A stretch of DNA of 64,000 nucleotides from an archaeon. GTDB taxonomy: Archaea > Nanobdellota > Nanobdellia > Woesearchaeales > GW2011-AR15. Positions 2,208 to 29,391 of this stretch are shown one piece after another. Below the pieces are notes generated by a model, which was given only the letters and a program-made list of their open reading frames with translations, searched no databases and was not told the origin of the DNA. Position 1 is the first letter of the stretch, and each line of letters opens with the position of its first letter. Made by a program: the position numbers and the translations under genes. The DNA is taken from the NCBI GenBank assembly GCA_043801855.1, contig JAZDLQ010000098.1, forward strand, positions 2,356-66,355. Reading direction: 5' to 3'.

Positions 2208-2252
2208 TTTTTTTTATATTTTTTTAATATATTTATAAAAGGTAAAAACAAA

Positions 2253-10587: not shown

Positions 10588-10724
10588 GCAATAACATCAG
10601 TTGAGAGCCATGTATTCTCATTCGCCATAAAATATTTCAAAATGATATAATCGGATTTAGATAAATTGAAACTGCATTTAACAACATCATCTAGACTTAT
10701 CTTCTTACAGGCAAAATCAATCAT
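10479..10724 (-). pseudogene. Chimeric ORF: N-terminal about 48 aa of a winged-HTH regulator running out of frame into the ATPase remnant
   Basis: 'CSFNLSKSDYIILKYFMANENTWLSTDVIAAK' looks like the start of a TrmB/MarR-type wHTH. After that the ORF reads the DKTGT region of copA in the wrong frame and stops. Confidence 0.45.
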
Positions 10725-10987: not shown

Positions 10988-11003
10988 TTTATAAAATAAA
11001 AAT

Positions 11004-15946: not shown

Positions 15947-16204
15947 TTAGTGTAGCTTATCTGTTCTGTTTATTAATTGATGTTTCAGGAATTGAGTTAA
16001 TGCTTCATCAACTGTGCTCTCTTCTGTTACAATCGGATTAATATTGGCGTTTGTCAAATCATCATAAATTCTTTGCCCCATACCATAGCTTATTACAATC
16101 TCACAGCCTATGACATTTTGAATATCATACACAACAAATCCTAATGCCCTTCCAAAATGATGTGATATTGTTTTTTTATCATCACTCGCTATTGCTATTT
16201 TCAT
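15947..16204 (-). CDS. NifX/NifB-C-like (dinitrogenase FeMo-cofactor biosynthesis domain) protein, short variant
   Basis: 'MKIAIASDDKKTISHHFGRA..FVVYD' and 'EIVISYGMGQRIYDDL' match the family. About 25-30 aa of the usual middle section are missing. Confidence 0.6.
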   Translation of the reverse strand: MKIAIASDDKKTISHHFGRALGFVVYDIQNVIGCEIVISYGMGQRIYDDLTNANINPIVTEESTVDEALTQFLKHQLINRTDKLH

Positions 16205-16238
16205 TTTCCATTTTGTCCACCCCTATATTATTTAATGT

Positions 16239-17117
16239 TTACTTGATATTTAATTCTATTTTTTCAGCAATAGCCTTAAATGCAGGCATTGTTTTTTTAT
16301 TGTATTCAACAACAGGAGTTAAATTCACCAGAGCATACAAGAATGACTTATCATATTGAATCTTTCCAATGAGTTCTATGCCTTGTTTTTTTGCATATTC
16401 TTCAATTTCTTGTGTAAAGGCTTCATTTAAGTCATATTTATTTATAATCAATCCTGACTTAATCCTGAAATGAGATACCATTCCAAATGCCCTTTTAAAA
16501 TCAGAGAAGCCTGATGGAGTTGGTTCAGTTACAATAACGCAATAATTTGCTCCAGCAACAGAAGCAATAACTGGGCAGCCTATACCAGCAGGAGCATCAT
16601 TTAATATTAAATCAATATTTTCCTTTTTAGAAGCTAGTTTTCTAATCTCGTGCACTATTTTTCCACTGCCAGATTCGCCAGCAGCTAAGGTTCCGGATAT
16701 AATCTCAAACCCGTATTTTGTTTTTCCAGTACCTATTTTTCCGTTCTGAACATCTTTCAGTTTCACTGCATTGTTTGGACAGACTAATTCGCATACTCCG
16801 CAGCCTTCGCATCCAAATTCTTTGACAACTATTTTATTATCTCGCTGTTCAATAGCGCCAAAATAGCAGTTCTCTATGCATAATTTGCATGAAATACATT
16901 TTTCATTGTCGATAACTGCCTTCTTGCTTGTTGAAATCTTGTTCCAAGATAAAAAATCATTTTCCCGCAGTCCAAGAACAAGTCCTAAATTTGATGCGTC
17001 AACATCGCAATCCACACATAATACCTTAATTTTTTTTGATAATACAACAGCAAAAGATGCAGTAATACTGCTTTTACCAACTCCTCCTTTACCTGAAAGC
17101 ACTGTTATTTGTTTCAT
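16239..17117 (-). CDS. MinD/ParA-family P-loop ATPase with inserted 2x[4Fe-4S] ferredoxin domain
   Basis: Deviant Walker A 'GKGGVGKSS', with Cys clusters 'CISCKLCIENC' and 'CEGCGVCELVCP'. Confidence 0.8.
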   Translation of the reverse strand: MKQITVLSGKGGVGKSSITASFAVVLSKKIKVLCVDCDVDASNLGLVLGLRENDFLSWNKISTSKKAVIDNEKCISCKLCIENCYFGAIEQRDNKIVVKEFGCEGCGVCELVCPNNAVKLKDVQNGKIGTGKTKYGFEIISGTLAAGESGSGKIVHEIRKLASKKENIDLILNDAPAGIGCPVIASVAGANYCVIVTEPTPSGFSDFKRAFGMVSHFRIKSGLIINKYDLNEAFTQEIEEYAKKQGIELIGKIQYDKSFLYALVNLTPVVEYNKKTMPAFKAIAEKIELNIK

Positions 17118-17896
17118 AGGTTTATCGCATCTAAAGTTTTCACTTTTTTTCCGCCGATTTTTTCAAACTCAGAAAAAGCATATTCATCAAGACAGTGCAT
17201 TGGATAAATATGCTCGATATTTATTTGTTTTATGAATTCAATCGTTTTATCTGTCTGTTCTTTATTAAAAAGGTGGAAACCTCCTATAAGAGCAAAAACC
17301 TTTTTTTCATTGCACACATCTATCGCATAGTTAATTGTATTGCATATACCAGAATGTGAACAACCAGAAATCACGATCAACCCTTTTTGACTTTTTATTG
17401 CAATTGCAGAGTCATCAATAACAAAATCTTTTTCTCCATTTTCAACATTGCCAACAGAAGTTTTTCCTTCAAAGCTGTTTAAACGTGGAATTTCCCCTAG
17501 AAATATAATTTTATTTTTCTTAATCCAAAAAGGTTCTTTAGAGAGAATAATCCTTGTTTTTTGCTTAATCTCCTGACTTGAAAAAGGGCTGCCAATTAAT
17601 ACTTTTTTTTGATAGTATTTTTTTTTTAAGCATAAAGGATGGCACAATACACACTTTACTTGCCTAAAATCAATGTGCATCAGCCCTTCTGTGTGGTCAA
17701 TATGCCCATGACTAATTATAAGATAATCAATTTTCTCCAGATTAATATTTTTTTGAGCAGCATTTATGAAAATGTCATCCTTATAGGAAACATCAAACAA
17801 AATCTTCATCTTGTATGCTTCTATCAATAGGCTCAATCCAGAATCCTCATTAACAAATTTTTCCAGTTCATTGTGCAATACAGTTATTTTAACCAT
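17114..17896 (-). CDS. MBL-fold metallo-hydrolase (MJ0301-like subgroup)
   Basis: 'ISHGHIDHTEG' HxHxDH motif and later 'GCSHSG'. 4-nt overlap with the downstream gene. Confidence 0.75.
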   Translation of the reverse strand: MVKITVLHNELEKFVNEDSGLSLLIEAYKMKILFDVSYKDDIFINAAQKNINLEKIDYLIISHGHIDHTEGLMHIDFRQVKCVLCHPLCLKKKYYQKKVLIGSPFSSQEIKQKTRIILSKEPFWIKKNKIIFLGEIPRLNSFEGKTSVGNVENGEKDFVIDDSAIAIKSQKGLIVISGCSHSGICNTINYAIDVCNEKKVFALIGGFHLFNKEQTDKTIEFIKQINIEHIYPMHCLDEYAFSEFEKIGGKKVKTLDAINL

Positions 17897-17914
17897 TCTT
17901 TATTCCCTCAAAAT

Positions 17915-18766
17915 TTATTTAAATCTATCATTTAGTATGCCTTCCGCAATCTTTTTTATTGATTCATCCTCTACAGGAATGCCTTTTGAGTACTGTTCCA
18001 TAATTGCTTTACTATACGGTATCTTTGCAAATATGCTCTTATTGTATCTTTTCAGCATATCAGATATTATCTGCTCATTTTCCTTTTCATAACGATTAAG
18101 AATTATCTCAAATGGCTTATTCATTCTTAACAAAAGTTTGATAATTACTTCTACGTCATGCTCTCCCAGTGGAGTTGGTTCAGTTATTCCAAAAACAAAA
18201 TAACAGAATCCAAGCGCTGAAATTACATCGCATTTGCTTCCAGCAGCAGTATCTGCTATTATGTAATCATATTTTTCTTTTTTACTTTCAACAATTCTCT
18301 TTAGCTCATTCACAACAAACTCTGCAATAGGCTCATTAATTTTTAATTCACCTGAATAAAAATCAATTCCGTATGCTTTTCCAGAATATATTACTCCAAT
18401 TTCTTTCTTGTTCCAGAAAATTGCTTCTTCTTTGCAAACTATTTTGCATGCCCCGCATCCATTACATTGTTGTGGCATGAAAAAAGGGATTTTATCGGAA
18501 ATAGCTACAATAGCATTATAATTACAGGCTTTAGCGCATGCACCGCATTTGATGCATTTATTAGCATTAATAACTGGAATTCTTTGGTATACTTTATGCA
18601 ATTCCTTTCTTTTAATATTAAGAATCAGATGGTCATTAGGGCAGTCAACATCCATATCAACCAGCATTACCTTGCTTCTTTTGCCAAGTTCAATAGCTAA
18701 AGCTGTTGCTACTGTTGATTTTCCAGTTCCGCCTTTGCCGCCAGTAACTCCGATTATTCTAACCAT
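17915..18766 (-). CDS. MinD/ParA-family ATPase with ferredoxin insert (paralog of 16239-17117)
   Basis: 'GGKGGTGKST', 'CIKCGACAKAC' and 'CNGCGACKIVC'. ATG 18766 (MVRIIGV). Confidence 0.8.
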   Translation of the reverse strand: MVRIIGVTGGKGGTGKSTVATALAIELGKRSKVMLVDMDVDCPNDHLILNIKRKELHKVYQRIPVINANKCIKCGACAKACNYNAIVAISDKIPFFMPQQCNGCGACKIVCKEEAIFWNKKEIGVIYSGKAYGIDFYSGELKINEPIAEFVVNELKRIVESKKEKYDYIIADTAAGSKCDVISALGFCYFVFGITEPTPLGEHDVEVIIKLLLRMNKPFEIILNRYEKENEQIISDMLKRYNKSIFAKIPYSKAIMEQYSKGIPVEDESIKKIAEGILNDRFK

Positions 18767-19319
18767 TTTTAAAAACAACACATCTACTTAAAAAAATCCT
18801 TGGATATTCAATCGTACTAAAGCCAATAGTATTTGCTTTTCGAACCAATTCTTTAAATTCAGATTCACTAATCTTAAAATTTGGCTCAGCAATAAATAAT
18901 ATTGCATCCTTTTTTAGCATATGCCTTATATCACTTAAGAATTTTTTCGTATTATCTAATTCGTGAATAACATAAAAAGCAATAACCATGTCAACTTTTT
19001 CAGAAACACCAATATCTGTTGCGCTGCTTTTATGTAAGACTATTATTTTTTCAATTATATTTCCGGATATTTTCTTTTTTATGATATCAAGCATTTCCTG
19101 CTGAAAATCAACAGCAATTACCTTGCCGTTTTTTCCAACCAGTTTTGCAATTTCAAGAGTAAAAAAACCAGGTCCGCAGCCAAAATCCATTACTGTCATA
19201 CATTCTTTAACATATTTTCCAAGTATCTTTTTTGGATTTTGAAATATCTTTCTTACAAAGCTGTCCAAAGAGTTATGCTTTTTGAAATGAAACACCCTGT
19301 TTTCAGGCTGAATGTTCAT
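18759..19319 (-). CDS. Class I SAM-dependent methyltransferase
   Basis: Motif I 'VMDFGCGPGFFT', 186 aa. Confidence 0.75.
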   Translation of the reverse strand: MNIQPENRVFHFKKHNSLDSFVRKIFQNPKKILGKYVKECMTVMDFGCGPGFFTLEIAKLVGKNGKVIAVDFQQEMLDIIKKKISGNIIEKIIVLHKSSATDIGVSEKVDMVIAFYVIHELDNTKKFLSDIRHMLKKDAILFIAEPNFKISESEFKELVRKANTIGFSTIEYPRIFLSRCVVFKNG

Positions 19320-19325
19320 TTTGTT

Positions 19326-19649
19326 TTACCCAAACGTCAAAAGCTTATCTGATTTTTCAACAAGATCCATTAAGTCCTGCATAGTTGATATTGGGCAGAC
19401 ATTGCTTTCTTTTTTTTGCCTTATCTTAAGGCAGCTGCCGCATGCCAAAATGTTTCCTTTATTTTTATAGAATGACTCAATTTGCTCTTTTACATTAAAT
19501 TTTTTGCCACTTATTTCTTCTGCTTCAACACCCTCTCCCAATAAAAAAATGCTTGTTTCATGCCCTTTCTTAATGGAAAAATTCCCAAACCTGAATGCAT
19601 TGTATGCTTTTTCTTCATCTTTTGTGTTTAGTATAATTCCTATTTTCAT
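19326..19649 (-). CDS. DsrE/DsrF-like small protein
   Basis: 'MKIGIILNT...AFRFGN...IFLLGEGV...ILACGSCL'. ATG 19649 is preceded by GAGGT. Confidence 0.55.
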   Translation of the reverse strand: MKIGIILNTKDEEKAYNAFRFGNFSIKKGHETSIFLLGEGVEAEEISGKKFNVKEQIESFYKNKGNILACGSCLKIRQKKESNVCPISTMQDLMDLVEKSDKLLTFG

Positions 19650-19650
19650 T

Positions 19651-20421
19651 TTAAACCTCAATTATTTTTCCTGAATAAAGCTGCTCTCCGCCAATAGAAT
19701 TAATAATAGCTTTTATTGCCTTATCTCCTGTGCAGTGACCTGGAAATACTTTTGCAACACCCTGTTTCTTTAATTCTTCAATTGTATTTTTAATCTCTTT
19801 TTCAGTAAACTTACTCATATGAAATCCGCCTATAATTATTATCTTATTTTCATTAAAAAACTGCTTAGCATACTTAACAATATTAATAATGCCTGAATGT
19901 GCACATCCTGTAATAATCAATAATTTTTTCTTATCTCTTATTACCAGAGCAGTATCATCTATTAAAAAATCATCATAAGCCATATTGTCTTTTATGTAAT
20001 AACCAAGGCTTGCCTTTCTTTCACCAGGAATTGTTCCTAGAAAAATGCAGCTCTCAGTTAGCCAGACAGGTTCATCATTAAAATCAATCTCTGAATCAGT
20101 TTTATCTATAGGAAACCCAATATATCTTTCACCAGCATACTTGGGAAGAATTGAATCTGGGTGTGCAATAATTTTTAAATTCTTATTAAGAGGAAATGAA
20201 GAAAATCCGCCTGTATGGTCATAGTGCCCGTGACTGAAAACAAGATAATTTATATCACTTAAACCAATATTAAGTTTCTTGGCATTCCGTAAAAACATGC
20301 TGCTTTGGCTTAAGTCAAACATGATTTTTTTATTGTTGATTTCAAAGTAAACTGATAGTCCATGTTCTGACTCAAAACTATTCTCTTTTTTTGTATCTTC
20401 TACAATTATAATTATTTTCAT
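19651..20421 (-). CDS. MBL-fold metallo-hydrolase (paralog of 17114-17896)
   Basis: 'FSHGHYDHTGG' and 'GCAHSG'. Confidence 0.75.
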   Translation of the reverse strand: MKIIIIVEDTKKENSFESEHGLSVYFEINNKKIMFDLSQSSMFLRNAKKLNIGLSDINYLVFSHGHYDHTGGFSSFPLNKNLKIIAHPDSILPKYAGERYIGFPIDKTDSEIDFNDEPVWLTESCIFLGTIPGERKASLGYYIKDNMAYDDFLIDDTALVIRDKKKLLIITGCAHSGIINIVKYAKQFFNENKIIIIGGFHMSKFTEKEIKNTIEELKKQGVAKVFPGHCTGDKAIKAIINSIGGEQLYSGKIIEV

Positions 20422-20481
20422 TTTACAAATGTTTTATTTTGATTGATATGCTCATTTTTCCAATATTTTCATAACATAACT

Positions 20482-21276
20482 TCAATACTTTTTGTTGATA
20501 TATGGGCATTTAGCTTTTTTGATTTTATCATCCAAAACCGCTCGAATGAATTCATTACATGTCCTGAATCCACATCTTCCGCAATTTAAATTAGGCACCA
20601 AATTTTTTAATTGTTTTCCTGCTAATGCTCTTTGCCGTTCTTTATCATCATTAACTATCTTATTCCCGTAACAATACCCACAAAGCGCTGAAGGCATGGA
20701 ATATTTTAGAGTAAACTTTCTAGTTTTAACATGAGAAGATGCCCTGATAAACTCTGCGATATCAATAACACCTTCTCCTGTCAGTCCGTTTACCTCTGTT
20801 AATCTTGCTTTGGCATTGACTTTCATAACTTTTGTCCTAAAAATTTCCCTTTCTGCTTGGGAAACTAAATCACCTTTGGCAATAGCCACAATATCTGCTT
20901 GCGTTAAGATCGGCCCATAGCCAGACGGGTTGCCTGAAGTAATATCCAAAACATTTACACCAATCCCTTCTTTAACATAAGGCGAGCAACGAAGACATAG
21001 ACCGGCTGTCTCCAAAATAATAATATCTGCATTTTGATTTTCCCTAATAATTTTAGGAATTTCCAAAGCAGTATAATGGTCAGGACAAATCTCTCCTGCT
21101 AATTTCTTAACAGTGGGGATTTTAAATTCTTTAGCAATGCGCATATCATCAGATGTTTGCAAACAATCAAATTTGGCAAAAAATAATTTAAAATCGTTTT
21201 TTAATTCTCGAACTACATATTTAATCAAACTTGTTTTACCTGCGCCTGGTGTGCCTGCAAAAATAACAAATTTCAT
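20482..21276 (-). CDS. G3E-like P-loop NTPase fused to a C-terminal 4-Cys Fe-S domain
   Basis: Walker A 'GTPGAGKTS', 'LETAGLCLRCSP' and 'AKGDLV' (HypB/UreG/CobW-like). C-terminus 'CGRCGFRTCNEFIRAV...KCPY' resembles the RnfB/CdhD-type Fe-S domain. Confidence 0.6.
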   Translation of the reverse strand: MKFVIFAGTPGAGKTSLIKYVVRELKNDFKLFFAKFDCLQTSDDMRIAKEFKIPTVKKLAGEICPDHYTALEIPKIIRENQNADIIILETAGLCLRCSPYVKEGIGVNVLDITSGNPSGYGPILTQADIVAIAKGDLVSQAEREIFRTKVMKVNAKARLTEVNGLTGEGVIDIAEFIRASSHVKTRKFTLKYSMPSALCGYCYGNKIVNDDKERQRALAGKQLKNLVPNLNCGRCGFRTCNEFIRAVLDDKIKKAKCPYINKKY

Positions 21277-22073
21277 GGTTTCTCACTCATTTTAATTGGT
21301 TTACAAAATAAATGTACTTCTTTAATTTTTTCCCCTCTCCTTATTCTTTCTCTTATCTCCAAACTATAATTTTCAACCCAGTTAAGATAACAAGCGATGC
21401 CTTTTTCTTTTATGGCAGTATTTAAAACCTTAACGATTCCCCCGTTCTTGATAATAACCCTCCTATTAGTATCTAGTGCCAAAGAAGGGTCATGTGTTAC
21501 TATCAATATAATTTTTCCTTCCTGCACCAGAATTTTAATCGCTTTTTCTTTTTTTATACCTGCATTTTCTATTTCATCGATTAAAACAATCGGAGATGTG
21601 CTAATGTTTGCCACATCAGAAACCATTAATGCTCTGCTTTGCCCTCCTGATAAATGCAATAAATTCATTTTAGGATGAATCGGCTCACCTGTAATTTCGT
21701 TAGCTTCTTTTATCACCCGGCTAAGTAAATCTTTAGATGCTTTTTTGCCTCGGGATTCTAAATGCAGCCTTAAAAAATCTTCAACAGACATATCAGTCAA
21801 AAAATTCATGCTTTGGGCCAATGACGCAATCAATTTTCTTTTTGGGTCGAACCTTATTTCTTTATCGGGGATTTTATCGTCAACTAAAATTTGGCGCCTG
21901 CTTTTAGTGTCTTTTTGAGCCAATCTCTCTATATCATAAAGAAGCTGGCTTTTTCCTGCGCCGGTGTAGCCAACAATTGCAATAATTTCTCCTCTTTTAA
22001 TATCAATTCTTTTGAATTTTTCCTTTTCGCCAAACTTATTTAGGCCAGGCAAGATTGTAATTTTTTTGATCAT
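21273..22073 (-). CDS. ABC-type ATPase without adjacent permease
   Basis: Walker A 'GYTGAGKSQL', signature 'LSGGQSRAL', Walker B 'VLIDEIE' and H-loop 'VTHD'. ATG 22073 overlaps the ferredoxin stop (ATGA). Confidence 0.7.
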   Translation of the reverse strand: MIKKITILPGLNKFGEKEKFKRIDIKRGEIIAIVGYTGAGKSQLLYDIERLAQKDTKSRRQILVDDKIPDKEIRFDPKRKLIASLAQSMNFLTDMSVEDFLRLHLESRGKKASKDLLSRVIKEANEITGEPIHPKMNLLHLSGGQSRALMVSDVANISTSPIVLIDEIENAGIKKEKAIKILVQEGKIILIVTHDPSLALDTNRRVIIKNGGIVKVLNTAIKEKGIACYLNWVENYSLEIRERIRRGEKIKEVHLFCKPIKMSEKP

Positions 22074-22264
22074 AACACTTTCTCCAGTATGGAATCGAAT
22101 GGACAAGCTTTTTTGCATAATCCGCACTTACCGCATTTTTTTTGATCTATGTTTGCTCTTCCATCTTTTTCAATTTTAATAGCATGGTTAGGACAGACCC
22201 TAATACAAGCTCCACACCCGGCACATGTTAATTTGTTAATTTTATATAGTTTCATTTTTGTCAT
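22070..22264 (-). CDS. 2x[4Fe-4S] ferredoxin
   Basis: 'CAGCGACIRVCP' and 'CGKCGLCKKACP', 64 aa. Confidence 0.8.
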   Translation of the reverse strand: MTKMKLYKINKLTCAGCGACIRVCPNHAIKIEKDGRANIDQKKCGKCGLCKKACPFDSILEKVL

Positions 22265-22608
22265 TGTGATTTGTTTGTCAGTAAATTTTTATCAAGCCAC
22301 ATCTTAACTTTTTCTTCTGGCATAACACCAATAAATTCATCAGCAAAAATTCCGTTCTTAAACATTTTAATACAAGGAATGCTCATTATCTTAAATTCAC
22401 GCGCCTTGCCCTTATGCTCTTCAACATTTATCTTTGCAAGAATGAATTTTCCACAGTATTCTTCAGCAAGAGCCTCTAAAACAGGGCTGAGCGCCTGGCA
22501 TGGGACACACCACGGGGCCCAAAAATCAACAACAACAGGAATTTCCCTGGATTTTTCAATTACTTCTTTTTCAAAATTTTCATCATTTACTTCTATTTCA
22601 TAATTCAT
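22261..22608 (-). CDS. trxA: Thioredoxin
   Basis: 'VDFWAPWCVPCQALSP', 115 aa. Confidence 0.85.
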   Translation of the reverse strand: MNYEIEVNDENFEKEVIEKSREIPVVVDFWAPWCVPCQALSPVLEALAEEYCGKFILAKINVEEHKGKAREFKIMSIPCIKMFKNGIFADEFIGVMPEEKVKMWLDKNLLTNKSQ

Positions 22609-22651
22609 ATTTAATCCCTCGTTACAATAATGGTTTTATTTATAGTTTTAT

Positions 22652-23854
22652 TTACCCCAATGTCAATAGTTCTGGTTTTATTAACAAAATTATACCAAGC
22701 ACAAGCATTAATCCTCCTGATATAAGCTTTAATATCTTCCCTTCTTTCTCACCTATTTTTTTCCTGCCAAGCGTCACTGTAAAAATTCCAACAACAACTG
22801 CCAGCGGAATAATATATACAAAGTTGTAGAGCGCCAGGTATAGGTAATATGCATAATGAGGAAGGTTTCTAAGAGTAAGAACCCTTGTATAAATGGCAGG
22901 AAATCCTGCTGTGCACAATAGCTCAAAAGTATTGGCAGTAAATGCAAGGACAATTGTTCCAAAAATTATTCCTATAATATTCTGCTCGTTTACAAGCGAT
23001 CTCATTTTCTGGAACAGCTTAGGCTTTGCTGAGTCTGGTATTGTAAGAGAGATTCCTTTTTTAAAAAAGAAAAAATCCTTTACATTTATCAGGCCTGCAA
23101 TTATTGCTAAAAGAGCAATTATCACTCTTAGGATATTTACATATTGAACAATAAGGAAAAAATTAAGCCAGGCTGACATGAATAGAAAATATAATATGCC
23201 TGAAGTGAGCACAAAAATCCCGCCAATTAATGCCATCTTTTTTCTTGATTTTGCATGGATTAATAATGTGAGCAAAAAGCATAATACCCAAATTGCGCAA
23301 GGATTAAATCCATCAAGGCCGCCCATTATTATTGTAAAGAGAGGCAGGCCTATTTTTGAAGTGTCAACAGAACCCAACAATGGAAGATTTATTAGATTTG
23401 GTTCAACAGGCATATTATTGCTCTGTTCAGTGCAGTCTCCTTTTGTTTCGCTTTCTATTTTATTAATTTCAAGCTTTTCTATTGGACTCTTGCATTCAGA
23501 GGAAGCGCAATTCTCAATTTCTCTTATAATTTCAGCGCCAGTTGTTTCTGCATTGCCATAACCTGTTATGTATTTATCTCCTATAAAAGTCATTGGCACA
23601 CCCATTGGGCTTGTTCCATAAGCAGCAGCCAGCTCTCCGAATAGTTTTGCGTTGGTGCTATTCTCGTAAACCTCATATTCATGTATTACAAGATTTGGAT
23701 AATTAGTTGTAATTGAATTAAGAAACTCTTTTTCTGCATTGCAATGCGGGCATGTTTTGCCATAAAAAATAAACAGGTCAACACTGCTCTGTGCAACTGC
23801 AACTTCAAATGAAAAAATTAACAATACACCCAGTAGTGCAAATTTCCAATTCAA
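22652..23854 (-). CDS. Exported thioredoxin-fold domain fused to a CcdA/DsbD-like transmembrane thiol-electron conduit
   Basis: Signal peptide, 'FYGKTCPHCNAEKEF' (CPHC), then about 6 TM helices with 'GGLDGFNPCAIWVL'. Confidence 0.7.
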   Translation of the reverse strand: MNWKFALLGVLLIFSFEVAVAQSSVDLFIFYGKTCPHCNAEKEFLNSITTNYPNLVIHEYEVYENSTNAKLFGELAAAYGTSPMGVPMTFIGDKYITGYGNAETTGAEIIREIENCASSECKSPIEKLEINKIESETKGDCTEQSNNMPVEPNLINLPLLGSVDTSKIGLPLFTIIMGGLDGFNPCAIWVLCFLLTLLIHAKSRKKMALIGGIFVLTSGILYFLFMSAWLNFFLIVQYVNILRVIIALLAIIAGLINVKDFFFFKKGISLTIPDSAKPKLFQKMRSLVNEQNIIGIIFGTIVLAFTANTFELLCTAGFPAIYTRVLTLRNLPHYAYYLYLALYNFVYIIPLAVVVGIFTVTLGRKKIGEKEGKILKLISGGLMLVLGIILLIKPELLTLG

Positions 23855-23874
23855 TTAAATCACCTAGATAGCTT

Positions 23875-24609
23875 TTAGTGCTTGTGCCCACAGCTTTGTG
23901 TCTGGTTGTCCAGTTTATCAAAGTTTTTTATTGCGTCCCCTACAGTATTATATTGCCCTGTTTTAAGCGACAATCCTTTTTGCTGTATAATTCCAATAGC
24001 CCTTCCGCCTATTCCCTTTGCAAAGATTGTGGTTGGGTGTACAGCTTCCTCAATCTGGTCTATTGGGGATTTGGTTGGGTCTTCATGGTCAAGATTATTC
24101 TCAATGATTTCCAGCTTTTCTTTTTCAACATCATACACACCAAAAAATGGTGCATGCCCAAAATGGTCTGAAATTGTTGAGTTCATTCCATTATCTTCAA
24201 GTAAGGGGAAGAACACTCTTTCACTAGATGATTCTTTAGCTTTTATTAGTCCACTATGTGCCTCAGATACTTCGCTTATCTCTTCAAGTTTGTTTTGTAA
24301 AAAATTATCTATTGCTTCCTGTATAGTGCCTGCTCCATGATATGCAGTAATTTCAAGTTCTCTTAAAACATCAGTTGCATTAGGCCCAAGGCTTCCTGTG
24401 ATGACTGCATTTACTCCTAAATTGCCTAACTGCTTTGCAGCAGCAATCCCTGCCCCATGCCCTTGTATTGAGCCTTCGTTTGCCACTGCTTGCGTGCTTT
24501 TTATTTTATTATCTTCAATTTCTGCTATTACAAAATACCTGCACCTTCCAAATCTCTGGTCAATGTTGCCATCAATACTATTTTCATTTGAACTTATTGC
24601 TATTTTCAT
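23875..24609 (-). CDS. Tandem NifX/NifB-C-like domain protein
   Basis: Two copies of the family pattern ('MKIAISSNE...QRFGRCRYFVI', '...ISDHFGHAPFFGVYD'). ATG 24609. The ORF-track start 24624 is a TTG extension. Confidence 0.7.
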   Translation of the reverse strand: MKIAISSNENSIDGNIDQRFGRCRYFVIAEIEDNKIKSTQAVANEGSIQGHGAGIAAAKQLGNLGVNAVITGSLGPNATDVLRELEITAYHGAGTIQEAIDNFLQNKLEEISEVSEAHSGLIKAKESSSERVFFPLLEDNGMNSTISDHFGHAPFFGVYDVEKEKLEIIENNLDHEDPTKSPIDQIEEAVHPTTIFAKGIGGRAIGIIQQKGLSLKTGQYNTVGDAIKNFDKLDNQTQSCGHKH

Positions 24610-24785
24610 TTTTGTTTCCTCCAATTTAAGATTATTAAAAATACTACAAAAACTATAAAGAATAATGCTGTTCCCAGATACGCAAAAAAATTAGTCTCTG
24701 GCTCCGGAAAAAAAAATAATGTAACAATCCCAATTATGATAACTGCAGGGACAATGACAACAGGAATCAAAAAATTATTTTTCAT
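24606..24785 (-). CDS. Small 2-TM membrane protein (59 aa), not in the supplied ORF track
   Basis: My translation: MKNNFLIPVVIVPAVIIIGIVTLFFFPEPETNFFAYLGTALFFIVFVVFLIILNWRKQK*. Its TGA overlaps the ATG of the downstream gene (ATGA at 24606-24609). Confidence 0.4.
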   Translation of the reverse strand: MKNNFLIPVVIVPAVIIIGIVTLFFFPEPETNFFAYLGTALFFIVFVVFLIILNWRKQK

Positions 24786-24817
24786 TTATTGCACATCTTT
24801 TAAAGCATAAGCCAACC

Positions 24818-25102
24818 TTATTCTCCTACTTCCTCTTTAATTTCTTCTGCTCCTTTTTTTAATTCTTCTGCCTGCTGTTTATCTCTATTCAAAAGCAGCG
24901 TTTGGAATTCTCCGACATGCGTTTTTTCTTCTTTAGCAATATCTAATAAAATCTTTCTGATATTTGGGTCACTGGCATAAGCAGCCATCTGCTCATACAT
25001 ATTAATTGCATCAAGTTCAGCTATGATTCCTGCCCTTAATATTTCTTTATCAATATCTTCTTTGCCTATCTTATCCAATCGAATTGGTATATTTGACATC
25101 AT
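24818..25102 (-). CDS. Small ferritin-like protein (encapsulated-ferritin/EncFtn-like fold)
   Basis: 'AELDAINMYEQMA...ILLDIAKEEKTHVGEFQTLL' is the two-helix ExxH/E di-iron half-site pattern I associate with EncFtn-type proteins. Confidence 0.5.
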   Translation of the reverse strand: MMSNIPIRLDKIGKEDIDKEILRAGIIAELDAINMYEQMAAYASDPNIRKILLDIAKEEKTHVGEFQTLLLNRDKQQAEELKKGAEEIKEEVGE

Positions 25103-25105
25103 TTT

Positions 25106-25300
25106 TTATTCACCTAGCTCCTTAATTTTTTCAAGAACATTTTTTGTAATTTTAATTACACTACTATTTTTTACTTCTTTATGGGTCCCTTCTTCAGTGT
25201 AGAAAAATTTATCAGAGGGCTTTGAATTTGCAAGAGTCCTCACACAAGTCAACTCACCATTTTCCTTAAATCCATATTTTAACCAAAATTCTTCGTTCAT
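25106..25300 (-). CDS. Hypothetical protein (64 aa)
   Basis: Intact ORF with a 4-nt overlap with the upstream MTase gene and 3 nt before the downstream gene. Confidence 0.4.
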   Translation of the reverse strand: MNEEFWLKYGFKENGELTCVRTLANSKPSDKFFYTEEGTHKEVKNSSVIKITKNVLEKIKELGE

Positions 25301-25881
25301 TTTTGTTCCTCCATTTTTTCACAGACATAAGTATTCATTGTCTTTCTTTCAAGAACACTTACTTTGCTTTTTTCTTTTAGCAGTCCATGCAATAACTCCA
25401 AATTAAGAATCATCTTTCTATGATTTTCTTCAGGATGGATAAATTCATCAAATGCTTTAGCTCCGGTTTCATTAAGTTCTGTAATTACAACTTTTTTTTT
25501 TGAAACACGAAACATCTCAGATACAATTTTTTTATAGTCTCCTCTACAATGATGCAATGCATTAAAAGACATAACAACATCAAAACTATTGTTTGGATAA
25601 GGCATTTGAGTTGCATCTGCAATGGTAAATGTGATTTTATCTAGGACATTTTCTTTTCTGGCATTTTCCTTAGCCTGCATAATCTTTTCTTCACAATTGT
25701 CAATAGCTGTTACAAGGCAATTGTATTCTTTTGCTGCCAGTATTGCTATATGTCCAAAACCTGTCCCAACATCAAGGATTTTGCTGTTTTTTAGTCTTGC
25801 AAATCTTAATACTTCCATCCTATCCTTAACTGGATCGTAATAGTCATATTTCTGTAATAGTTTTTTTATGTATTCTTTCAT
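25297..25881 (-). CDS. Class I SAM-dependent methyltransferase
   Basis: Motif I 'ILDVGTGFGHIA', 194 aa. Confidence 0.75.
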   Translation of the reverse strand: MKEYIKKLLQKYDYYDPVKDRMEVLRFARLKNSKILDVGTGFGHIAILAAKEYNCLVTAIDNCEEKIMQAKENARKENVLDKITFTIADATQMPYPNNSFDVVMSFNALHHCRGDYKKIVSEMFRVSKKKVVITELNETGAKAFDEFIHPEENHRKMILNLELLHGLLKEKSKVSVLERKTMNTYVCEKMEEQK

Positions 25882-25938
25882 TTCTAAGTATCACTAATTA
25901 TTGGAATATTCTGGCTAAAAATAAAAAAAATGCCAAGG

Positions 25939-26259
25939 TTACTGTTTGGCTTGCTCAATTCTTTTTTTTATTTCTTCTTTTTCAGCTAGCAGGTTTTTTT
26001 CTTCCTGCTCTAGTGCATTTAATCTTTGTTCAAGATATGCTTTTTCATTTATTGGCTGGCCTGTGAAATTTTGCTGCTGGAAAAAGCCTGTCTGCCTAAA
26101 TCCATACCCTCTACCGGCACCCCTGCCAAAACCGCCGCCGTTTCCCATACCTCTTCTAAAAAAACCTCTTCCCATAGGCCTAGGCATTTGGCCGCTTTCC
26201 CATAATGGCGTGCACCATCCGCCTGTTCCCATAGGTCCTGTTCCATCTCCGTTTGGCAT
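25939..26259 (-). CDS. DUF5320-like protein (Gly/Arg-rich N-terminus + coiled coil)
   Basis: 'MPNGDGTGPMGTGG...GRGFFRRGMGNGGGFGRGAGRGYG', then 'LEQRLNALEQEEKNLLAEKEEIKKRIEQ'. Confidence 0.6.
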   Translation of the reverse strand: MPNGDGTGPMGTGGWCTPLWESGQMPRPMGRGFFRRGMGNGGGFGRGAGRGYGFRQTGFFQQQNFTGQPINEKAYLEQRLNALEQEEKNLLAEKEEIKKRIEQAKQ

Positions 26260-26307
26260 TTTCGTTTTCCTCCTTGTTGGTTTAATTTATAAGTATATTC
26301 TAATATT

Positions 26308-27381
26308 TTAACCTCTTGCCATTCCACTTTTGCATTTTGGACAAATCATGCTTGAACAAGGCAATCCTCTTTTGTGTTCTGTTTCATATCCACATTTTAC
26401 ACAGATACACTTACCTCCTGGTCCAAATCCCTTTGCTTCCTGTATTTTCTCAACAAATTTACCTTTCCTTTGCCATCCAAAACTCCTGCCTATTTTTATT
26501 CCTGAAATTAATTCTCTCGGCTGATAATAGCTGTTTTCTAAATCATGAGATATTATTTGGATCGCAGCATATCGAAGATTTGAAATCCCTTTGATTAATT
26601 TCATCTGTAAATCGGATGAAATTTTGCTTGCTTCTTCTACGCTTAATGATTTTTCAAGTTTAATTATTATATTTGCTGTTATTACAGAACCTTTTTTCTG
26701 GGTTTTAAGTTCAGAAAATTCAATGTTCTCTTCTTGAATTATTTTTTTTATCTTATTCTCGATATCTTCTCCTGCAGTTACATCAAGCAATGAATCCATT
26801 GCTTCCTTGCCTAAACCAATGGACTCATAAATTAAGTATAATCCAATGATTAAAGCCAACAAAGGATCTGAATAAGGAAATAAGGGTATTAATAGCAATC
26901 CAGCAAACACTGCTAGTGAAGACACCACATCAATTCTAGAGTGAACACCATCTGCTATGAGAGATAGTGATTGCTCTTTTTTTCCATGATGCATTTTTAT
27001 TCTTGCCATAATCTCATTAACAATTGCAGAAAAAGCCATTATTCCAATTGCAGGAAAACTTAATTCTATTAACTTTGGATTAATAAATCCCAGATATGAG
27101 TTATATATTATCCATAAGCCTGTCCCAAATAAAATAATTGTTATCAATAATCCAGATAAAACCTCAAATTTATAGTGGCCATAGGGATGCTTTTTATCTG
27201 CCGGCTTTTTTGCTTCCCTAATTCCCAAGAAACTGAATCCAGAAGAGATAATATCTATTGCTGAATGTATTCCTTCAGCAAAAACTGCAGAGCTTCTGCT
27301 GATTAAACCAATTGTAACTTTAGACAAAGCTAAGATTACATTTGCCAATACTGCAACTATAGATACTTGCTCTTTATTCAT
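26308..27381 (-). CDS. Cation diffusion facilitator (CDF) metal exporter with C-terminal zinc-ribbon extension
   Basis: Six TM helices with 'HSAIDIISS' and 'HSRIDVVSS' (HxxxD sites), a cytoplasmic CTD, then the extra tail 'GFGPGGKCICVKCGYETEHKRGLPCSSMICPKCKSGMARG'. Confidence 0.8.
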   Translation of the reverse strand: MNKEQVSIVAVLANVILALSKVTIGLISRSSAVFAEGIHSAIDIISSGFSFLGIREAKKPADKKHPYGHYKFEVLSGLLITIILFGTGLWIIYNSYLGFINPKLIELSFPAIGIMAFSAIVNEIMARIKMHHGKKEQSLSLIADGVHSRIDVVSSLAVFAGLLLIPLFPYSDPLLALIIGLYLIYESIGLGKEAMDSLLDVTAGEDIENKIKKIIQEENIEFSELKTQKKGSVITANIIIKLEKSLSVEEASKISSDLQMKLIKGISNLRYAAIQIISHDLENSYYQPRELISGIKIGRSFGWQRKGKFVEKIQEAKGFGPGGKCICVKCGYETEHKRGLPCSSMICPKCKSGMARG

Positions 27382-27382
27382 A

Positions 27383-27532
27383 TTATCCTCTTGTCATTGG
27401 GCTTCCACACATTGGGCATTTTACAGAATAACATGGAATTCCTCTCTGATGTGGAATTTTATGTCCGCATTTGGAACAAACACATTCTCCTCCTGGTCCC
27501 ATTCCAAATCCACCTTCTTTACCCCTAGGCAT
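27383..27532 (-). CDS. Small zinc-ribbon protein (49 aa), not in the supplied ORF track
   Basis: My translation: MPRGKEGGFGMGPGGECVCSKCGHKIPHQRGIPCYSVKCPMCGSPMTRG*. It fills the gap between Mrp and CDF exactly (1 nt from the CDF ATG) and is paralogous to the CDF C-terminal tail. Confidence 0.55.
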   Translation of the reverse strand: MPRGKEGGFGMGPGGECVCSKCGHKIPHQRGIPCYSVKCPMCGSPMTRG

Positions 27533-27544
27533 TTTCACTCACCT

Positions 27545-28261
27545 TCAATATTTTATTATCTTGCTAACTATCTCAAGGAAAGACTTAGTATCTGAATTGC
27601 CTGATTCCAGAATAAATGGCTTTCCGCTATCTCCTGCCTTCACAATTAACTGATTAAGTGTAAGCTTTCCTAAATAAGGCACATTTAGTTGTTTTGCAGC
27701 TTTTTCTGCTCCGCCTTCTCCGAATATCCCTCCAGACATATTTTCGACTACGCCAATCACAGGTACATTTACTTTCTGGGAAAAAGTGACTGCTTTCATA
27801 GCATCAAGAATTGCAACTTCCTGTGGGGTTGACACAATTATTGATCCTGTTATCGGATTAATCAGGTGAACAATGCTTAATGCTTCATCTCCTGTTCCAG
27901 GCGGAAGGTCAACAATAAGGTAATCAAGCTCTCCCCAATCAACTTCTTCAACAAACTGCTTTATTACTCCGTGTTTTGCTGGCCCTCTCCATATGACTGC
28001 ATCATAATCGTTTTCGAGTAAAAATGCCATTGACATGACTTTTAAATTGTCTTTTACTGCAACAGGCATTATTTTCTTATCTTTAATCTGAATTTTAGTG
28101 TTGTTGATATTGAGCATCTTTGGCACATTTGGGCCGTGAATGTCAATATCAAGTAGTCCAACCTGAAAATGCTTTTCAGCCAATGCATACGCTAGATTGA
28201 CAGCCACAGTTGTCTTTCCAACTCCGCCTTTTCCACTCATCACAAGTATTGTTTTTTTCAT
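27545..28261 (-). CDS. mrp: Mrp/NBP35 (ApbC) family Fe-S cluster carrier ATPase
   Basis: 'GKGGVGKTTVAVNLA', 'DLPPGTGD' and 'GVVENMSG'. Confidence 0.85.
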   Translation of the reverse strand: MKKTILVMSGKGGVGKTTVAVNLAYALAEKHFQVGLLDIDIHGPNVPKMLNINNTKIQIKDKKIMPVAVKDNLKVMSMAFLLENDYDAVIWRGPAKHGVIKQFVEEVDWGELDYLIVDLPPGTGDEALSIVHLINPITGSIIVSTPQEVAILDAMKAVTFSQKVNVPVIGVVENMSGGIFGEGGAEKAAKQLNVPYLGKLTLNQLIVKAGDSGKPFILESGNSDTKSFLEIVSKIIKY

Positions 28262-28313
28262 TTTTTTTAGTTCATGTCTTCTATATTTTAGTACTGTAAG
28301 ATTTTTTTCATGT

Positions 28314-28862
28314 TTAATTCAAATGAATGAAAAAATTTCTAACTTTAATTATTCCGTAAGCAGCAATCCCTCCTATTATTGCAGTCACTAATTGCATTGT
28401 TCCCATTGTAGTAAGAAACAAAGCTGGAACTGTTTTTAAGCTAACTAGTAAATATGCGCTTCCAAAAAGAAATGCTGTTTTTAATGCACTGCTTATTCCA
28501 AGGCTGACAAAATAATTGCTTTTTAATTTGCCTTTAAAAAATTTCATTGCATATACAATTATTGCGTTTCCAACCCATATAAACGGAATCATATAAATTA
28601 AATAAACACTCATTGGCCCAAAAATCATCCCTCTTGCAAGAACACCAATGCTTGGAAAAAGTATTATCGGAAGTGTTCCTTTTAAATCCATGTAATATGA
28701 ACTTAAAATTAGCGCAGCATTAACCCCAATTCCTACAATTATTTGTGGATGTCCAATTAGCAAAGGCAATAATAACGCTGAAAAAGAATACAAAAATAAC
28801 TGTAGCCTGTATTCTATATAATTTAGTTTTTCTATTTGAATATTAATAAATGAGTTTTCCAT
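28314..28862 (-). CDS. Polytopic membrane protein, unknown function
   Basis: About 5 TM helices. I place the start at ATG 28862 (MENSFINIQ...), preceded by GAGGTG. The longer track ORF (to 28991) would overlap the DUF134 gene. Confidence 0.5.
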   Translation of the reverse strand: MENSFINIQIEKLNYIEYRLQLFLYSFSALLLPLLIGHPQIIVGIGVNAALILSSYYMDLKGTLPIILFPSIGVLARGMIFGPMSVYLIYMIPFIWVGNAIIVYAMKFFKGKLKSNYFVSLGISSALKTAFLFGSAYLLVSLKTVPALFLTTMGTMQLVTAIIGGIAAYGIIKVRNFFIHLN

Positions 28863-28872
28863 TTTTTTCACC

Positions 28873-29391
28873 TCAAAATCTTGGATCTCTTCCAGCACCA
28901 CCTTGTCCTCTTCCCTGACCAGTTTGAGATTGCCCTCTTCCTTTTCCCATTCCTCCTCTTCCGTGATGTCCAAATTCACCTGTCTCCACATTTACCCTAT
29001 GGAAGTTTGTGCTTGCACATTTTGGACACTTTTGCGGCCTGCCTGTCCCAAACACTTCTTCCCATTCATTATTGCAGCTATAACACCTAAATTTTCTGTT
29101 TACCAATTTGAATACTCCTCCTTCAATCTTTAGTGCCTTTCCATTAATTATTGCATCAGTAATCTTTTTTATTGCTGAATCAAAAACCCGTGAAAATGTC
29201 GGCTGTGAAATATTCATCAGTTCAGCTGCTTTCACCTGGTCATAATTTTCAATTTCCCTTAGTCTTAATGCTTCATATTCCTCACAACTCAGGTTAACTT
29301 CTTCAAGTTCTGTTAAAGGAATACCTCTTGGCTTGAAGTAATCAACTGAAGGTTCTCTTCCGATGAATCTGTATTTTTTAGGGCGTACCAT
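28873..29391 (-). CDS. DUF134 (UPF0251) putative DNA-binding protein with zinc-ribbon and Gly/Arg-rich tail
   Basis: 'MVRPKKYRFIGREPSVDYFKPRGIP...LSCEEYEALRLREIENYDQVKAAELMNISQPTFSRV', then 'CYSCNNEW...CPKCAS' and 'GRGGMGKGRGQSQTGQGRGQGGAGR'. Confidence 0.7.
   Translation of the reverse strand: MVRPKKYRFIGREPSVDYFKPRGIPLTELEEVNLSCEEYEALRLREIENYDQVKAAELMNISQPTFSRVFDSAIKKITDAIINGKALKIEGGVFKLVNRKFRCYSCNNEWEEVFGTGRPQKCPKCASTNFHRVNVETGEFGHHGRGGMGKGRGQSQTGQGRGQGGAGRDPRF

Follow-up and report, generated by a model that had tools for sequence, protein, structure and literature searches.

A 13.4-kb unbroken chain of 23 minus-strand open reading frames (ORFs), at positions 15947-29391 of a 64,000-nucleotide stretch of woesearchaeal DNA (GenBank assembly GCA_043801855.1, contig JAZDLQ010000098.1, positions 2,356 to 66,355; "the window" below is this whole stretch), is a composite of at least two independently conserved gene modules. 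One, the ORP-like module, holds MinD-type ATPases with inserted ferredoxin domains (MinD-Fd), NifX-like proteins, an Mrp-type ATPase, MBL-fold proteins and a DUF134 protein. The other joins a thioredoxin (Trx) and a ferredoxin (Fd) to a soluble ABC-type ATPase and a G3E GTPase that carries an iron-sulfur (Fe-S) domain. A preliminary description of this DNA had proposed one system built around the MinD-Fd/NifX core; comparison with related loci replaces it with two modules, which are joined in one array only in genomes of the candidate phyla radiation (CPR) and DPANN types.

How Fe-S and other metal-sulfur cofactors are built in strict anaerobes with minimal genomes, such as CPR and DPANN, is an open question, and it is this question that the array addresses. 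It also bears on the ORP complex, whose role is still unsolved more than a decade after its description. In the array, which recurs in two domains of life, ORP-type genes are physically linked to a ferredoxin/thioredoxin chain and to an ABC-G3E pair, and this linkage offers defined partners and hypotheses open to test: proteins to co-express, cysteines to mutate, and genomes to compare. The core itself is a variant of an already known, functionally unsolved ORP gene set. Its fusion with a Trx-Fd-ABC-G3E module, with or without ferredoxin:thioredoxin reductase (FTR), in two domains of life appears to be undescribed, as does the ABC-G3E/FeS pair itself. The array is a sound comparative-genomics lead, not a solved system.

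Two independently conserved modules

Related loci were collected in two scans. The first, anchored on the G3E/FeS GTPase and taking one genome per species, kept 80 loci from 277 relatives, with labels mostly of CPR/Patescibacteria, Dependentiae/Babeliales and DPANN (Woese-, Pace-, Iain-, Aenigm- and Altiarchaeales types). Family counts refer to 82 non-duplicate G3E-anchored loci, 27 labelled archaeal and 55 bacterial, each searched with iterated hidden Markov models built from the window proteins; they are lower bounds, because many loci end at contig edges. The second scan was anchored on MinD-Fd in metagenome contigs, and its counts are taken over 32 loci of at least 8 kb.

Around the G3E anchor (n = 82), the ABC ATPase is present in 79 loci, and on the anchor's strand a ferredoxin lies nearby in 67, a Trx in 42 and the FTR catalytic subunit in 35. 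NifX-like proteins occur in 26 of these loci, MinD-Fd, DUF5320 and DUF134 in 25 each, a CDF exporter in 21, a Trx-fold membrane protein in 14, a CsoR-like repressor in 13 (bacterial loci only), MBL-fold proteins in 10 and Mrp in 8. The partner shares the anchor's strand in 25/25 cases for MinD-Fd, 21/21 for CDF, 25/26 for NifX, 23/25 for DUF5320 and 21/25 for DUF134. The commonest adjacency is ABC to G3E (78 loci), followed by G3E to Fd (47), Trx to ABC (36), Fd to FTR (28), CsoR to Trx (13), NifX-NifX and MinD-Fd-MinD-Fd (10 each), NifX to MinD-Fd (9) and CDF to DUF134 (8).

Around the MinD-Fd anchor (n = 32), two adjacent MinD-Fd genes are found in 28 loci, NifX-like genes in 27, DUF134 and Mrp in 15 each (3 of the 15 Mrp genes being Mrp-NifX fusions, as in MrpORP), MBL in 14, DUF5320 in 13, CDF in 4 and Trx in 3. 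A typical order is DUF5320-DUF134-NifX-MinDFd-MinDFd-MBL-Mrp-NifX (L132, L137 and L142, where the MBL gene follows the MinD-Fd pair). The conserved MinD-Fd/NifX-like/MBL/DUF134 neighbourhood of the preliminary description is thus recovered on one strand. Neither ABC nor G3E occurs in any of the 32 loci, and ORP genes are often absent from ABC-G3E loci; because of this mutual independence, the array is to be regarded as a composite of the ORP-like and Trx-Fd-ABC-G3E modules.

Both modules stand in one same-strand array in the DPANN loci L051, L059 and L069 (13-14 of the window's 19 distinct families) and in the CPR loci L004, L013, L025 and L032. In L051 and L059, both archaeal, 14/19 families lie on one strand, and bacterial loci share 9-11 of them. 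Neighbourhood analysis, which had been suggested as a check and was here anchored on MinD-Fd and G3E, thus found the expanded array to be syntenic in relatives. The gene order closest to that of the window is found in Iainarchaeum-type loci from metagenome-assembled genomes (MAGs). Three composite orders are as follows.

L059, first part: DUF134-ZnR-CDF-NifX-NifX-MBL-...-Mrp-DUF5320-Trx-ABC-G3E-Fd-MT-(68-aa protein)
L059, continued after the 68-aa protein: Fd-FTR-Trx-MinDFd-MinDFd-TrxTM
L004 (bacterial): Fd, Trx-FTR fusion, NrdD, NrdG, DUF5320, NifX, NifX, Trx, ABC, G3E, Fd, MinD-Fd, CDF, DUF134, MBL
L013 (bacterial): Fd-ABC-G3E-Fd-FTR-MinDFd-MinDFd-CDF-DUF134

The window's G3E, ABC and ferredoxin (20482-22264) are 62-80% identical to CPR (bacterial-labelled) copies versus 33-63% to archaeal-labelled ones; for G3E alone the values are 64-79% and 54-63%, and ABC is 62-80% identical to CPR versions. 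For MinD-Fd, Trx, the Trx-membrane protein and Mrp of the window, identity is 49-64% to archaeal-type loci versus 26-48% to CPR. The array looks chimeric because the ABC-G3E-Fd genes are CPR-like and the latter set archaeal-like, and this contrast, drawn under MAG labels that are possibly unreliable, suggests inter-domain replacement of the ABC-G3E-Fd cassette.

The 68-aa protein of L059, which has no assigned family, is itself conserved between G3E/Fd and FTR in 16 loci (L005-L008, L035, L050-L069; for example, L005 11160-11366), with 53-75% identity between CPR and DPANN loci. It is missing from the window.

Gene content and layout of the array

Domains were assigned with Pfam and with NCBIfam models at their curated cut-offs, and PDB sequences were searched for the nearest solved structures. 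Nearly all of the families named in the preliminary description were matched in Pfam. From first gene to last, the array reads as follows.

28873..29391, minus: DUF134 (UPF0251) helix-turn-helix (HTH) protein with C-terminal zinc ribbon and Gly/Arg-rich tail (PF02001, 87.7 bits)
28314..28991, minus: polytopic membrane protein, 225 aa, no Pfam or NCBIfam match
27545..28261, minus: Mrp/NBP35-family P-loop ATPase, MrpORP type (PF10609, 295.7 bits)
27383..27538, minus: zinc-ribbon protein, 51 aa, four Cys, two CxxC; paralogue of the CDF C-terminal tail
26308..27381, minus: CDF-family divalent-cation exporter with C-terminal zinc-ribbon tail (PF01545, 159 bits)
25939..26259, minus: DUF5320 protein, N-terminal Gly/Arg/aromatic-rich disordered region, then coiled coil (PF17253, 40 bits)
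25297..25881, minus: class I S-adenosylmethionine (SAM)-dependent methyltransferase MT2 (Methyltransf_25, 79 bits)
25106..25300, minus: hypothetical protein, 64 aa, no family match
24818..25102, minus: EncFtn-like (half-ferritin/rubrerythrin-like) protein (PF22277, 32.4 bits)
24606..24785, minus: two-helix membrane peptide, 59 aa, faint matches, all under curated thresholds
23875..24624, minus: tandem NifX-like (IPR003731/Di-Nase) two-domain protein (PF02579, 125.8 bits, two stretches)
22652..23854, minus: signal-anchored Trx/glutaredoxin-fold domain with CPHC, fused to a polytopic membrane domain (weak Glutaredoxin/Thioredoxin matches)
22261..22608, minus: thioredoxin, CVPC (PF00085, 91.2 bits)
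22070..22264, minus: 2x[4Fe-4S] ferredoxin (Fer4, 54.9 bits)
21273..22127, minus: soluble ABC-type ATPase (PF00005, ABC_tran; probable start 22073, giving 266 aa)
20482..21276, minus: HypB-like G3E GTPase with RnfB/CoFeSP-type [4Fe-4S] domain (PF02492, cobW-type, and PF04060)
19651..20421, minus: MBL-fold protein MBL2, Tm1679 type (PF00753)
19326..19661, minus: DsrE/DsrF-like protein (PF02635, 47.6 bits)
18759..19319, minus: class I SAM-dependent methyltransferase MT1 (Methyltransf_31, 69.7 bits)
17915..18781, minus: MinD-Fd2, MinD-type ATPase with inserted 2x[4Fe-4S] ferredoxin, Orp3/Orp4-like (CbiA and Fer4)
17114..17896, minus: MBL-fold protein MBL1 (PF00753)
16239..17117, minus: MinD-Fd1, MinD-type ATPase with inserted 2x[4Fe-4S] ferredoxin, Orp3/Orp4-like (CbiA and Fer4)
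15947..16204, minus: short NifX-like gene, 85 aa, last of the array (PF02579, 48.9 bits, C-terminal half only)

The reported layout, about 23 genes on a single strand with no gap longer than 60 nt and eight or more overlaps, is borne out: intergenic gaps are 1-60 nt, and nine overlaps are counted with longest-ORF coordinates (17114/17117, 18759/18781, 19651/19661, 21273/21276, 22070/22127, 22261/22264, 24606/24624, 25297/25300 and 28873/28991). Two of these probably become smaller with the likely starts. Starting the ABC gene at its conserved Met19 (22073) makes the Fd/ABC junction a classic ATGA overlap, and the true start of the 225-aa membrane protein is probably Met44, near 28862. The latter protein is lineage-specific, with a homologue in 0/166 loci.

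Gaps of at least 43 nt (28261/28314, 26259/26308, 25881/25939, 22608/22652 and 20421/20482) are all module borders, and several contain TATA-like boxes. A T8AT5 run lies 3' of the DUF5320 gene. At the array's ends, a TATA-like TTTTAAATA stands about 38 nt 5' of the DUF134 ATG and a T6 run 3' of the terminal short NifX-like gene. Given the gaps, the internal TATA-like boxes and the oligo-T run, the layout suggests tandem sub-operons rather than a single transcript. A bacterial-type promoter scan found no enrichment of sigma-70 promoters in the array (37 vs 57.3 expected); hairpin terminators were likewise not enriched (9 vs 7.2 expected), with none at any gene boundary. Inspection of the gap sequences by eye for a shared operator motif yielded just AT-rich AATATT-like words, which are not significant at 33% G+C (about 0.33 across the window). 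Scans of the window for tRNA and Rfam families gave no matches. Of those window ORFs that were scanned, none was recognised as a nitrogenase gene, in agreement with the preliminary description.

Several products merit closer description. The DUF134 protein, weakly similar to a sigma-70 region-4-like model, is likely a transcriptional regulator of the array, of which its gene is the first. The 51-aa zinc ribbon is 53% identical over 34 aa to residues 324-357 of the CDF protein (the tail, 26308-26412), and its gene stands beside DUF5320, NifX and CDF in L032, L037, L065 and L059 too. The EncFtn-like protein scores 72 bits against EncB_fam, under the cut-off of 90. Homologues of MT1 (26-29% identity) lie between G3E and FTR in L050, L051, L059 and L069. 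The 22652-23854 product, read earlier as a fusion of a Trx fold with CcdA, retains the first half of that description (Trx/glutaredoxin fold, residues 15-102); its membrane half matches no DsbD/CcdA model, and DsbD stayed without a match when thresholds were relaxed to E = 5 (Pfam) or E = 10 (PDB sequences). The protein has CPHC at residue 35 and paired Cys in its membrane domain and is probably an envelope thiol-disulfide oxidoreductase; homologues close the array in L050-L069.

The ORP-like module

An experimentally studied relative of this module is the orange protein (ORP) complex of Desulfovibrio vulgaris, which comprises the paralogues Orp3 and Orp4, with two [4Fe-4S] motifs each, together with Orp5, Orp8 and Orp9 (PMC6345978). 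Orp8 is the NifX-like "orange protein" that binds a Mo-Cu-sulfide cluster, and Orp9 is MrpORP, in which an Mrp/NBP35 P-loop domain with a CxxC motif is joined to a Di-Nase domain; Orp3, Orp4 and Orp8 co-purify, and in vitro they receive Fe-S clusters from holo-MrpORP (PMC6345978). Transcription of both orp operons, via the Fe-S sensor OrpR, is confined to very low redox potential, near -425 mV, and Orp4 has a reported size of 31 kDa (PMC8359166).

By domain content, with the Desulfovibrio proteins compared by description, the ORP-like module corresponds to the ORP complex genes, because the window Mrp favors the MrpORP model and the MinD-Fd architecture fits Orp3/Orp4. The Mrp protein scores 304.6 bits against the MrpORP model NF041136 versus 207.8 bits against ApbC (NCBIfam); lacking a Di-Nase domain, it falls short of the MrpORP cut-off of 450. 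Some match to this model is also given by the MinD-Fd and NifX-like proteins. The Mrp protein carries a deviant Walker A motif (SGKGGVGKT). Each MinD-Fd protein has CxxCxxC...C twice, and across the MinD-Fd alignment the deviant Walker A motif, the ferredoxin cysteines and Cys181 are all invariant; MinD-Fd2 is 54-63% identical to the L050-L069 copies. No Orp3, Orp4 or Orp8 model appears among the NCBIfam matches of the window proteins. The view that the core is uncharacterised accordingly survives in part: its cellular function is not established, and its domain content matches an experimentally studied complex. A literature search on the DUF134/NifX/MinD combination found nothing relevant.

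The three NifX-like domains reported earlier are present as the tandem pair plus the short copy, the latter with an internal deletion of about 30 central residues when aligned with full IPR003731 domains. DUF5320 lies directly 5' of NifX-like genes in 5 loci, and in 3 more a single zinc-ribbon gene lies between. Its residues 1-66 contain 20 Gly, 7 Arg, 10 aromatic residues, 5 Pro and 2 acidic residues. MBL2 is 35% identical to MBL1 and matches the solved structures 3h3e (E = 8.6e-37) and 2p4z (E = 2.6e-31); the nearest structures of the MBL-fold proteins, Tm1679 and 2p4z, are both uncharacterised.

The ABC-G3E pair and the thiol redox genes

The ABC ATPase, a canonical nucleotide-binding domain with no permease, had been listed as an orphan; its adjacency to G3E in 78/82 loci shows that it is obligately paired with the G3E/FeS GTPase. 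The pair retains 55-79% identity across CPR bacteria, Dependentiae and DPANN archaea, a level of conservation that suggests an important core function. G3E has more than 1200 homologues, the best 120 of which are all at least 69% identical. A search of the literature found nothing on this NTPase pair.

The GTPase matches PF02492 at 43.6 bits (cut-off 20.7), and its nearest solved structure is HypB (E = 9e-9). Down to 42% identity its invariant elements are Walker A (GTPGAGKTS), CPDH (64-67), ETAGLCxRC (89-97), KGD (134-136), SQAEREIFR and a CxxC (199-202). ETAG corresponds to ExxG, and ETAGLCxRC occupies the position of the HypB metal-binding Cys/His motif. The guanine motif reads (A/S/T/N)KGD, with K134, G135 and D136 invariant and the first position variable. 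The C-terminal PF04060 domain is of the [4Fe-4S] type found in RnfB and in the corrinoid Fe-S protein large subunit. Assignment of G3E as a HypB or UreG equivalog was rejected at 52 bits (cut-off 121.2) and 25.3 bits (cut-off 204.2), respectively. The ABC ATPase meets no curated NCBIfam family at its cut-off; a SufC-like identity was also rejected, since the protein is 21-27% identical to SufC and its top NCBIfam matches include no SufC model, which leaves generic ABC similarity.

The typical bacterial cassette runs CsoR-like repressor, Trx, ABC, G3E, Fd, FTR. A Wolfebacteria locus leads from this cassette directly into sufC-sufB and then DUF5320-Fd-CDF-DUF134. A three-gene form, 37-38% identical, is found in L083-L086 (Bacteroidales, Methanobacteriaceae, Labilibaculum) and comprises the ABC ATPase, a G3E GTPase of 233 aa and, encoded on its own, a product of about 220 aa with PF04060 at its N terminus. 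In the methanogen locus the three genes lie between comA and a CofE-like gene.

FTR, part of the module in relatives, lies outside the array in the window, where an FTR-Trx pair is found 5 kb away.

10721..11032, minus: FTR catalytic-subunit homologue (PF02943, 82.2 bits vs cut-off 22), with CPC...CPC...CHC motifs and 55% identity to the L001 FTR
11004..11336, minus: second thioredoxin (CMPC), directly 5' of the FTR gene, 39% identical to the array Trx

Flanking genes

Directly 3' of FTR, after a small possible winged-HTH ORF, a 295-aa ORF (9628-10724) resembles the C-terminal half of a P-type ATPase of the heavy-metal type, with a HAD-like Hydrolase match and GDGINDAP; the N-terminal half is missing, and the gene may be truncated. 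The left flank (204-3161 and 7673-8975) holds genes of redox and oxidative-damage functions, namely, ferritin, an ODP-family di-iron MBL protein, a thioredoxin reductase (TrxR)-like gene, and Nth-like and Ogg-type glycosylases, and MgtC is also found in the window flanks. Two of the flanking features are worth locating here.

2253-3161: TrxR-like flavoprotein
29538..30297, plus: ZIP-family metal importer, divergent from DUF134, in two overlapping ORFs (PF02535; 29770-30297, 103.9 bits; 29538-29813, 28.8 bits)

The split of the ZIP gene may be a frameshift, a pseudogene or a sequencing error. Farther away, two giant ORFs (1367 aa and 4008 aa) that adjoin each other on the minus strand (40841-56967), the smaller with He_PIG and bacterial Ig-like domains, probably encode surface proteins; a comparable 1342-aa He_PIG/Big_9 protein is found near the cassette of L005. 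At 58345-59601, an N6/N4 DNA methylase stands beside a protein with a DpnI-like (methyl-directed) restriction domain. The G3E and IMPDH proteins of the window have 100% matches labelled as archaeal MAG proteins; named relatives nearest to IMPDH include both Nanoarchaeota and bacteria, and scans of the flanks revealed no gene diagnostic of either domain.

A model for the array and its alternatives

The reading that we favor, evenly poised between acceptance and doubt, is that, in a strictly anaerobic cell of reduced genome, the array handles metal-sulfur clusters and provides low-potential reducing power for thiols. From the observed domain content, synteny, modularity and invariant motifs we infer biochemical roles, complex formation and regulation along the following lines. 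The ORP-like module (15947-20421, 23875-24624 and 25939-29391) would be a metal-sulfur cluster handling unit in which MinD-Fd1 and MinD-Fd2 probably pair as a heterodimer that is switched by nucleotides, as NifH and Orp3/Orp4 suggest by analogy. With its ferredoxin clusters, this heterodimer would deliver electrons to, or remodel, inorganic Fe-S or heterometal-sulfide species on the NifX-like carriers, with the MrpORP-type ATPase, the Tm1679-type MBL proteins and the Gly/Arg/aromatic-rich DUF5320 as putative accessories. The DUF134 HTH protein would act as regulator, and the CDF exporter and the neighboring ZIP importer would balance the metal pool.

The second module (20482-22608, with FTR-Trx at 10721-11336) would form a ferredoxin-to-FTR-to-thioredoxin chain with the ABC-G3E pair as its hub, a candidate nucleoside triphosphate (NTP)-driven device for metallocentre or Fe-S delivery to the chain, or for its gating, loosely analogous to SufC-SufB or Nbp35. 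Through the CPHC Trx-fold membrane protein, control of thiol redox state would reach the envelope. The more specific proposal that ABC-G3E is a two-NTPase machine for metallocentre or Fe-S insertion or for NTP-gated electron entry, coupled to an ORP-like complex in ultra-small anaerobes, is tentative, and we doubt it more than we trust it. Together, the two modules could constitute a streamlined supply of Fe-S or heterometal-sulfide cofactors from inorganic sulfide that replaces the classical ISC/SUF/NIF logic. The earlier suggestion of metallocluster trafficking and redox maintenance is, in this light, plausible.

Several observations weigh against cluster handling coupled to thiol reduction. 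The ORP complex is itself without an established function, and its authors proposed septum positioning, not cofactor assembly (PMC3897727). The window Mrp has zero Cys, with ENMSGGIFGEGG in place of the CxxC cluster-ligand motif, so that canonical bridging-cluster binding is ruled out for it; the earlier Mrp/NBP35 assignment holds for the family and not for the ligands. Mrp homologues in other loci mostly keep ENMSxxxCPxCG, and the Cys-free ENMSGGIFGEGG-type variant recurs in the archaeal loci L053, L070 and L076 and appears to mark a subfamily unable to bind such a cluster. Neither a client enzyme nor a sulfur donor (cysteine desulfurase, SufB) is found in the window, and SufB adjoins the cassette in one distinct locus only. 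The three-gene form has no ferredoxin, Trx, FTR or ORP genes nearby; because ABC-G3E is thus found without ferredoxin, FTR or ORP genes in Methanobacteriaceae and Bacteroidales, its role may not be tied to the ferredoxin/FTR/Trx chain. The short NifX-like gene, given its deletion, may be a decaying paralogue, and all the related loci lack counterparts of DsrE, the 225-aa membrane protein, the 64-aa protein and the 59-aa peptide.

How else might these genes be understood? One alternative, which we consider unlikely, is a detoxification island for metals, thiometallates and sulfide that sequesters and exports thiophilic metals (Zn, Cu, Ni, Mo/W sulfides) and repairs thiols. The CDF exporter, ZIP importer, zinc ribbons, DsrE and ferritin-like proteins would suit it, as would the ferritin, ODP di-iron protein, TrxR-like gene, P-type ATPase fragment and MgtC of the flanks, the CsoR/RcnR-family repressor at the head of the Trx-ABC-G3E cassette in 13 bacterial loci, and the binding of a Mo-Cu-sulfide cluster by the orange protein (PMC6345978). 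However, CDF occurs in just 21/82 G3E-anchored and 4/32 long MinD-Fd-anchored loci, the orp genes are on in normal low-potential growth rather than metal stress (PMC8359166), and the best-conserved parts (ABC-G3E at 55-79% identity, ferredoxins, FTR) are atypical of resistance, their conservation arguing for a core function. A redox-gated division or positioning role, in which the MinD-Fd proteins place a septum-like structure, their Fe-S clusters sense redox and the remaining genes are co-regulated housekeeping, strikes us as quite unlikely. It would accord with the septum role proposed for ORP (PMC3897727), the localisation of MrpORP at the cell pole (PMC6345978), the under-threshold matches of MinD-Fd to the minD_bact and minD_arch models, and a non-carrier, ParA-like role for an Mrp without cluster ligands; yet neither FtsZ, CdvABC nor MinE was seen in the array or the loci inspected, recurrent tight linkage to NifX-like, DUF5320, CDF, ferredoxin and MBL genes would be unexpected, and the ABC-G3E module would be left unexplained.

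That the redox genes serve to supply reductant to class III ribonucleotide reductase (RNR) and disulfide-dependent enzymes, with electrons passing from Fd through FTR and Trx to NrdD, ABC-G3E maturing or gating FTR, and the ORP genes as mere neighbors, we regard as very unlikely. In L004, Fd, the Trx-FTR fusion, NrdD and NrdG lie directly 5' of DUF5320-NifX-NifX-Trx-ABC-G3E, NrdD or NrdG homologues are found within 10 kb in a few further loci, and a ferredoxin disulfide reductase reportedly serves a class III RNR, but in all NrdD or NrdG is near in only about 4-5/82 loci, neither is in the window, and the neighbourhoods of distant ABC-G3E homologues contain neither Trx nor FTR. Scarcely credible, finally, is a chance co-directional cluster of unrelated genes in a compact genome. 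Other long same-strand runs exist in the window (e.g., 40841-63655), four array genes lack counterparts in related loci, and the array contains internal promoter-like and terminator-like sequences; synteny nevertheless contradicts it, with 14/19 families on one strand in L051/L059 and 9-11 in bacterial loci, partner families nearly always on the anchor's strand, and gene order conserved within the sub-modules.

Comparison with known systems

The array has a close parallel in the ORP complex. Shared with it are two paralogous MinD-type ATPases of about 30 kDa with two [4Fe-4S] motifs each (292 and 288 aa in the window), stand-alone NifX-like (Di-Nase, IPR003731) proteins as in Orp8, an MrpORP-type Mrp/NBP35 P-loop domain, gene clustering and restriction to anaerobes. 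In contrast, the window Mrp is unfused to Di-Nase and Cys-free, and all genes of the array share a strand, where D. vulgaris Hildenborough has two divergent operons (orp5-orp4-orp3 and orp7-orp8-orp9). Whereas Desulfovibrio uses sigma-54/OrpR control, the first gene here encodes a DUF134 protein, and no enhancer-binding protein (EBP) or sigma-54-type regulator is found in the array. The window further adds MBL, DUF5320, CDF, methyltransferases, DsrE and the whole Trx-Fd-ABC-G3E module.

In IssA of Pyrococcus furiosus, an IPR003731 domain, aided by a cationic Gly/aromatic-rich tail, acts as the scaffold of inorganic Fe-S polymers, and the protein stores Fe and S as thioferrate (PMC5524996). The first 66 residues of DUF5320 resemble that thioferrate-binding tail in composition, although the segment here belongs to a separate coiled-coil protein and the NifX-like proteins end without such a tail; by analogy, DUF5320 could be a detached IssA-like tail.

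In nitrogenase cofactor maturation, the [4Fe-4S] nucleotide-switch ATPase NifH works alongside NifX/NafY carriers that hold complex Fe-S species. The array likewise pairs a SIMIBI-class ATPase bearing [4Fe-4S] clusters with IPR003731 carrier domains. It differs in that NifB, NifEN and NifDK are absent here, the MinD-Fd clusters reside in an inserted ferredoxin domain rather than bridging a dimer, and the NifX TIGR model scores 36 bits against a cut-off of 112.

G3E shares with HypB and UreG the G3E fold, Walker A, ExxG and a Cys/His metal-site motif right after the Walker B/switch region. Unlike them, it has a PF04060 [4Fe-4S] domain either within the same chain or encoded after it, its partner is a soluble ABC ATPase, and genes for HypA/C/D/E/F or urease are absent from its surroundings in the loci inspected. 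As in G3E, a stable [4Fe-4S] domain and a CxxC site occur together in Nbp35. ABC-G3E, SufBC/SufBC2D and Nbp35-Cfd1 have in common that an NTPase of the ABC or P-loop type is coupled to a Cys-rich partner for cluster binding; here, however, a G3E GTPase takes the place of SufB beside the ABC protein, and a role in Fe-S assembly would follow by analogy. The embedded ABC-G3E pair, which has no counterpart in described FTR systems of anaerobes, likewise sets the array apart from these, with which it shares the clustering of a CPC/CPC/CHC catalytic subunit, thioredoxins and 2x[4Fe-4S] ferredoxins.

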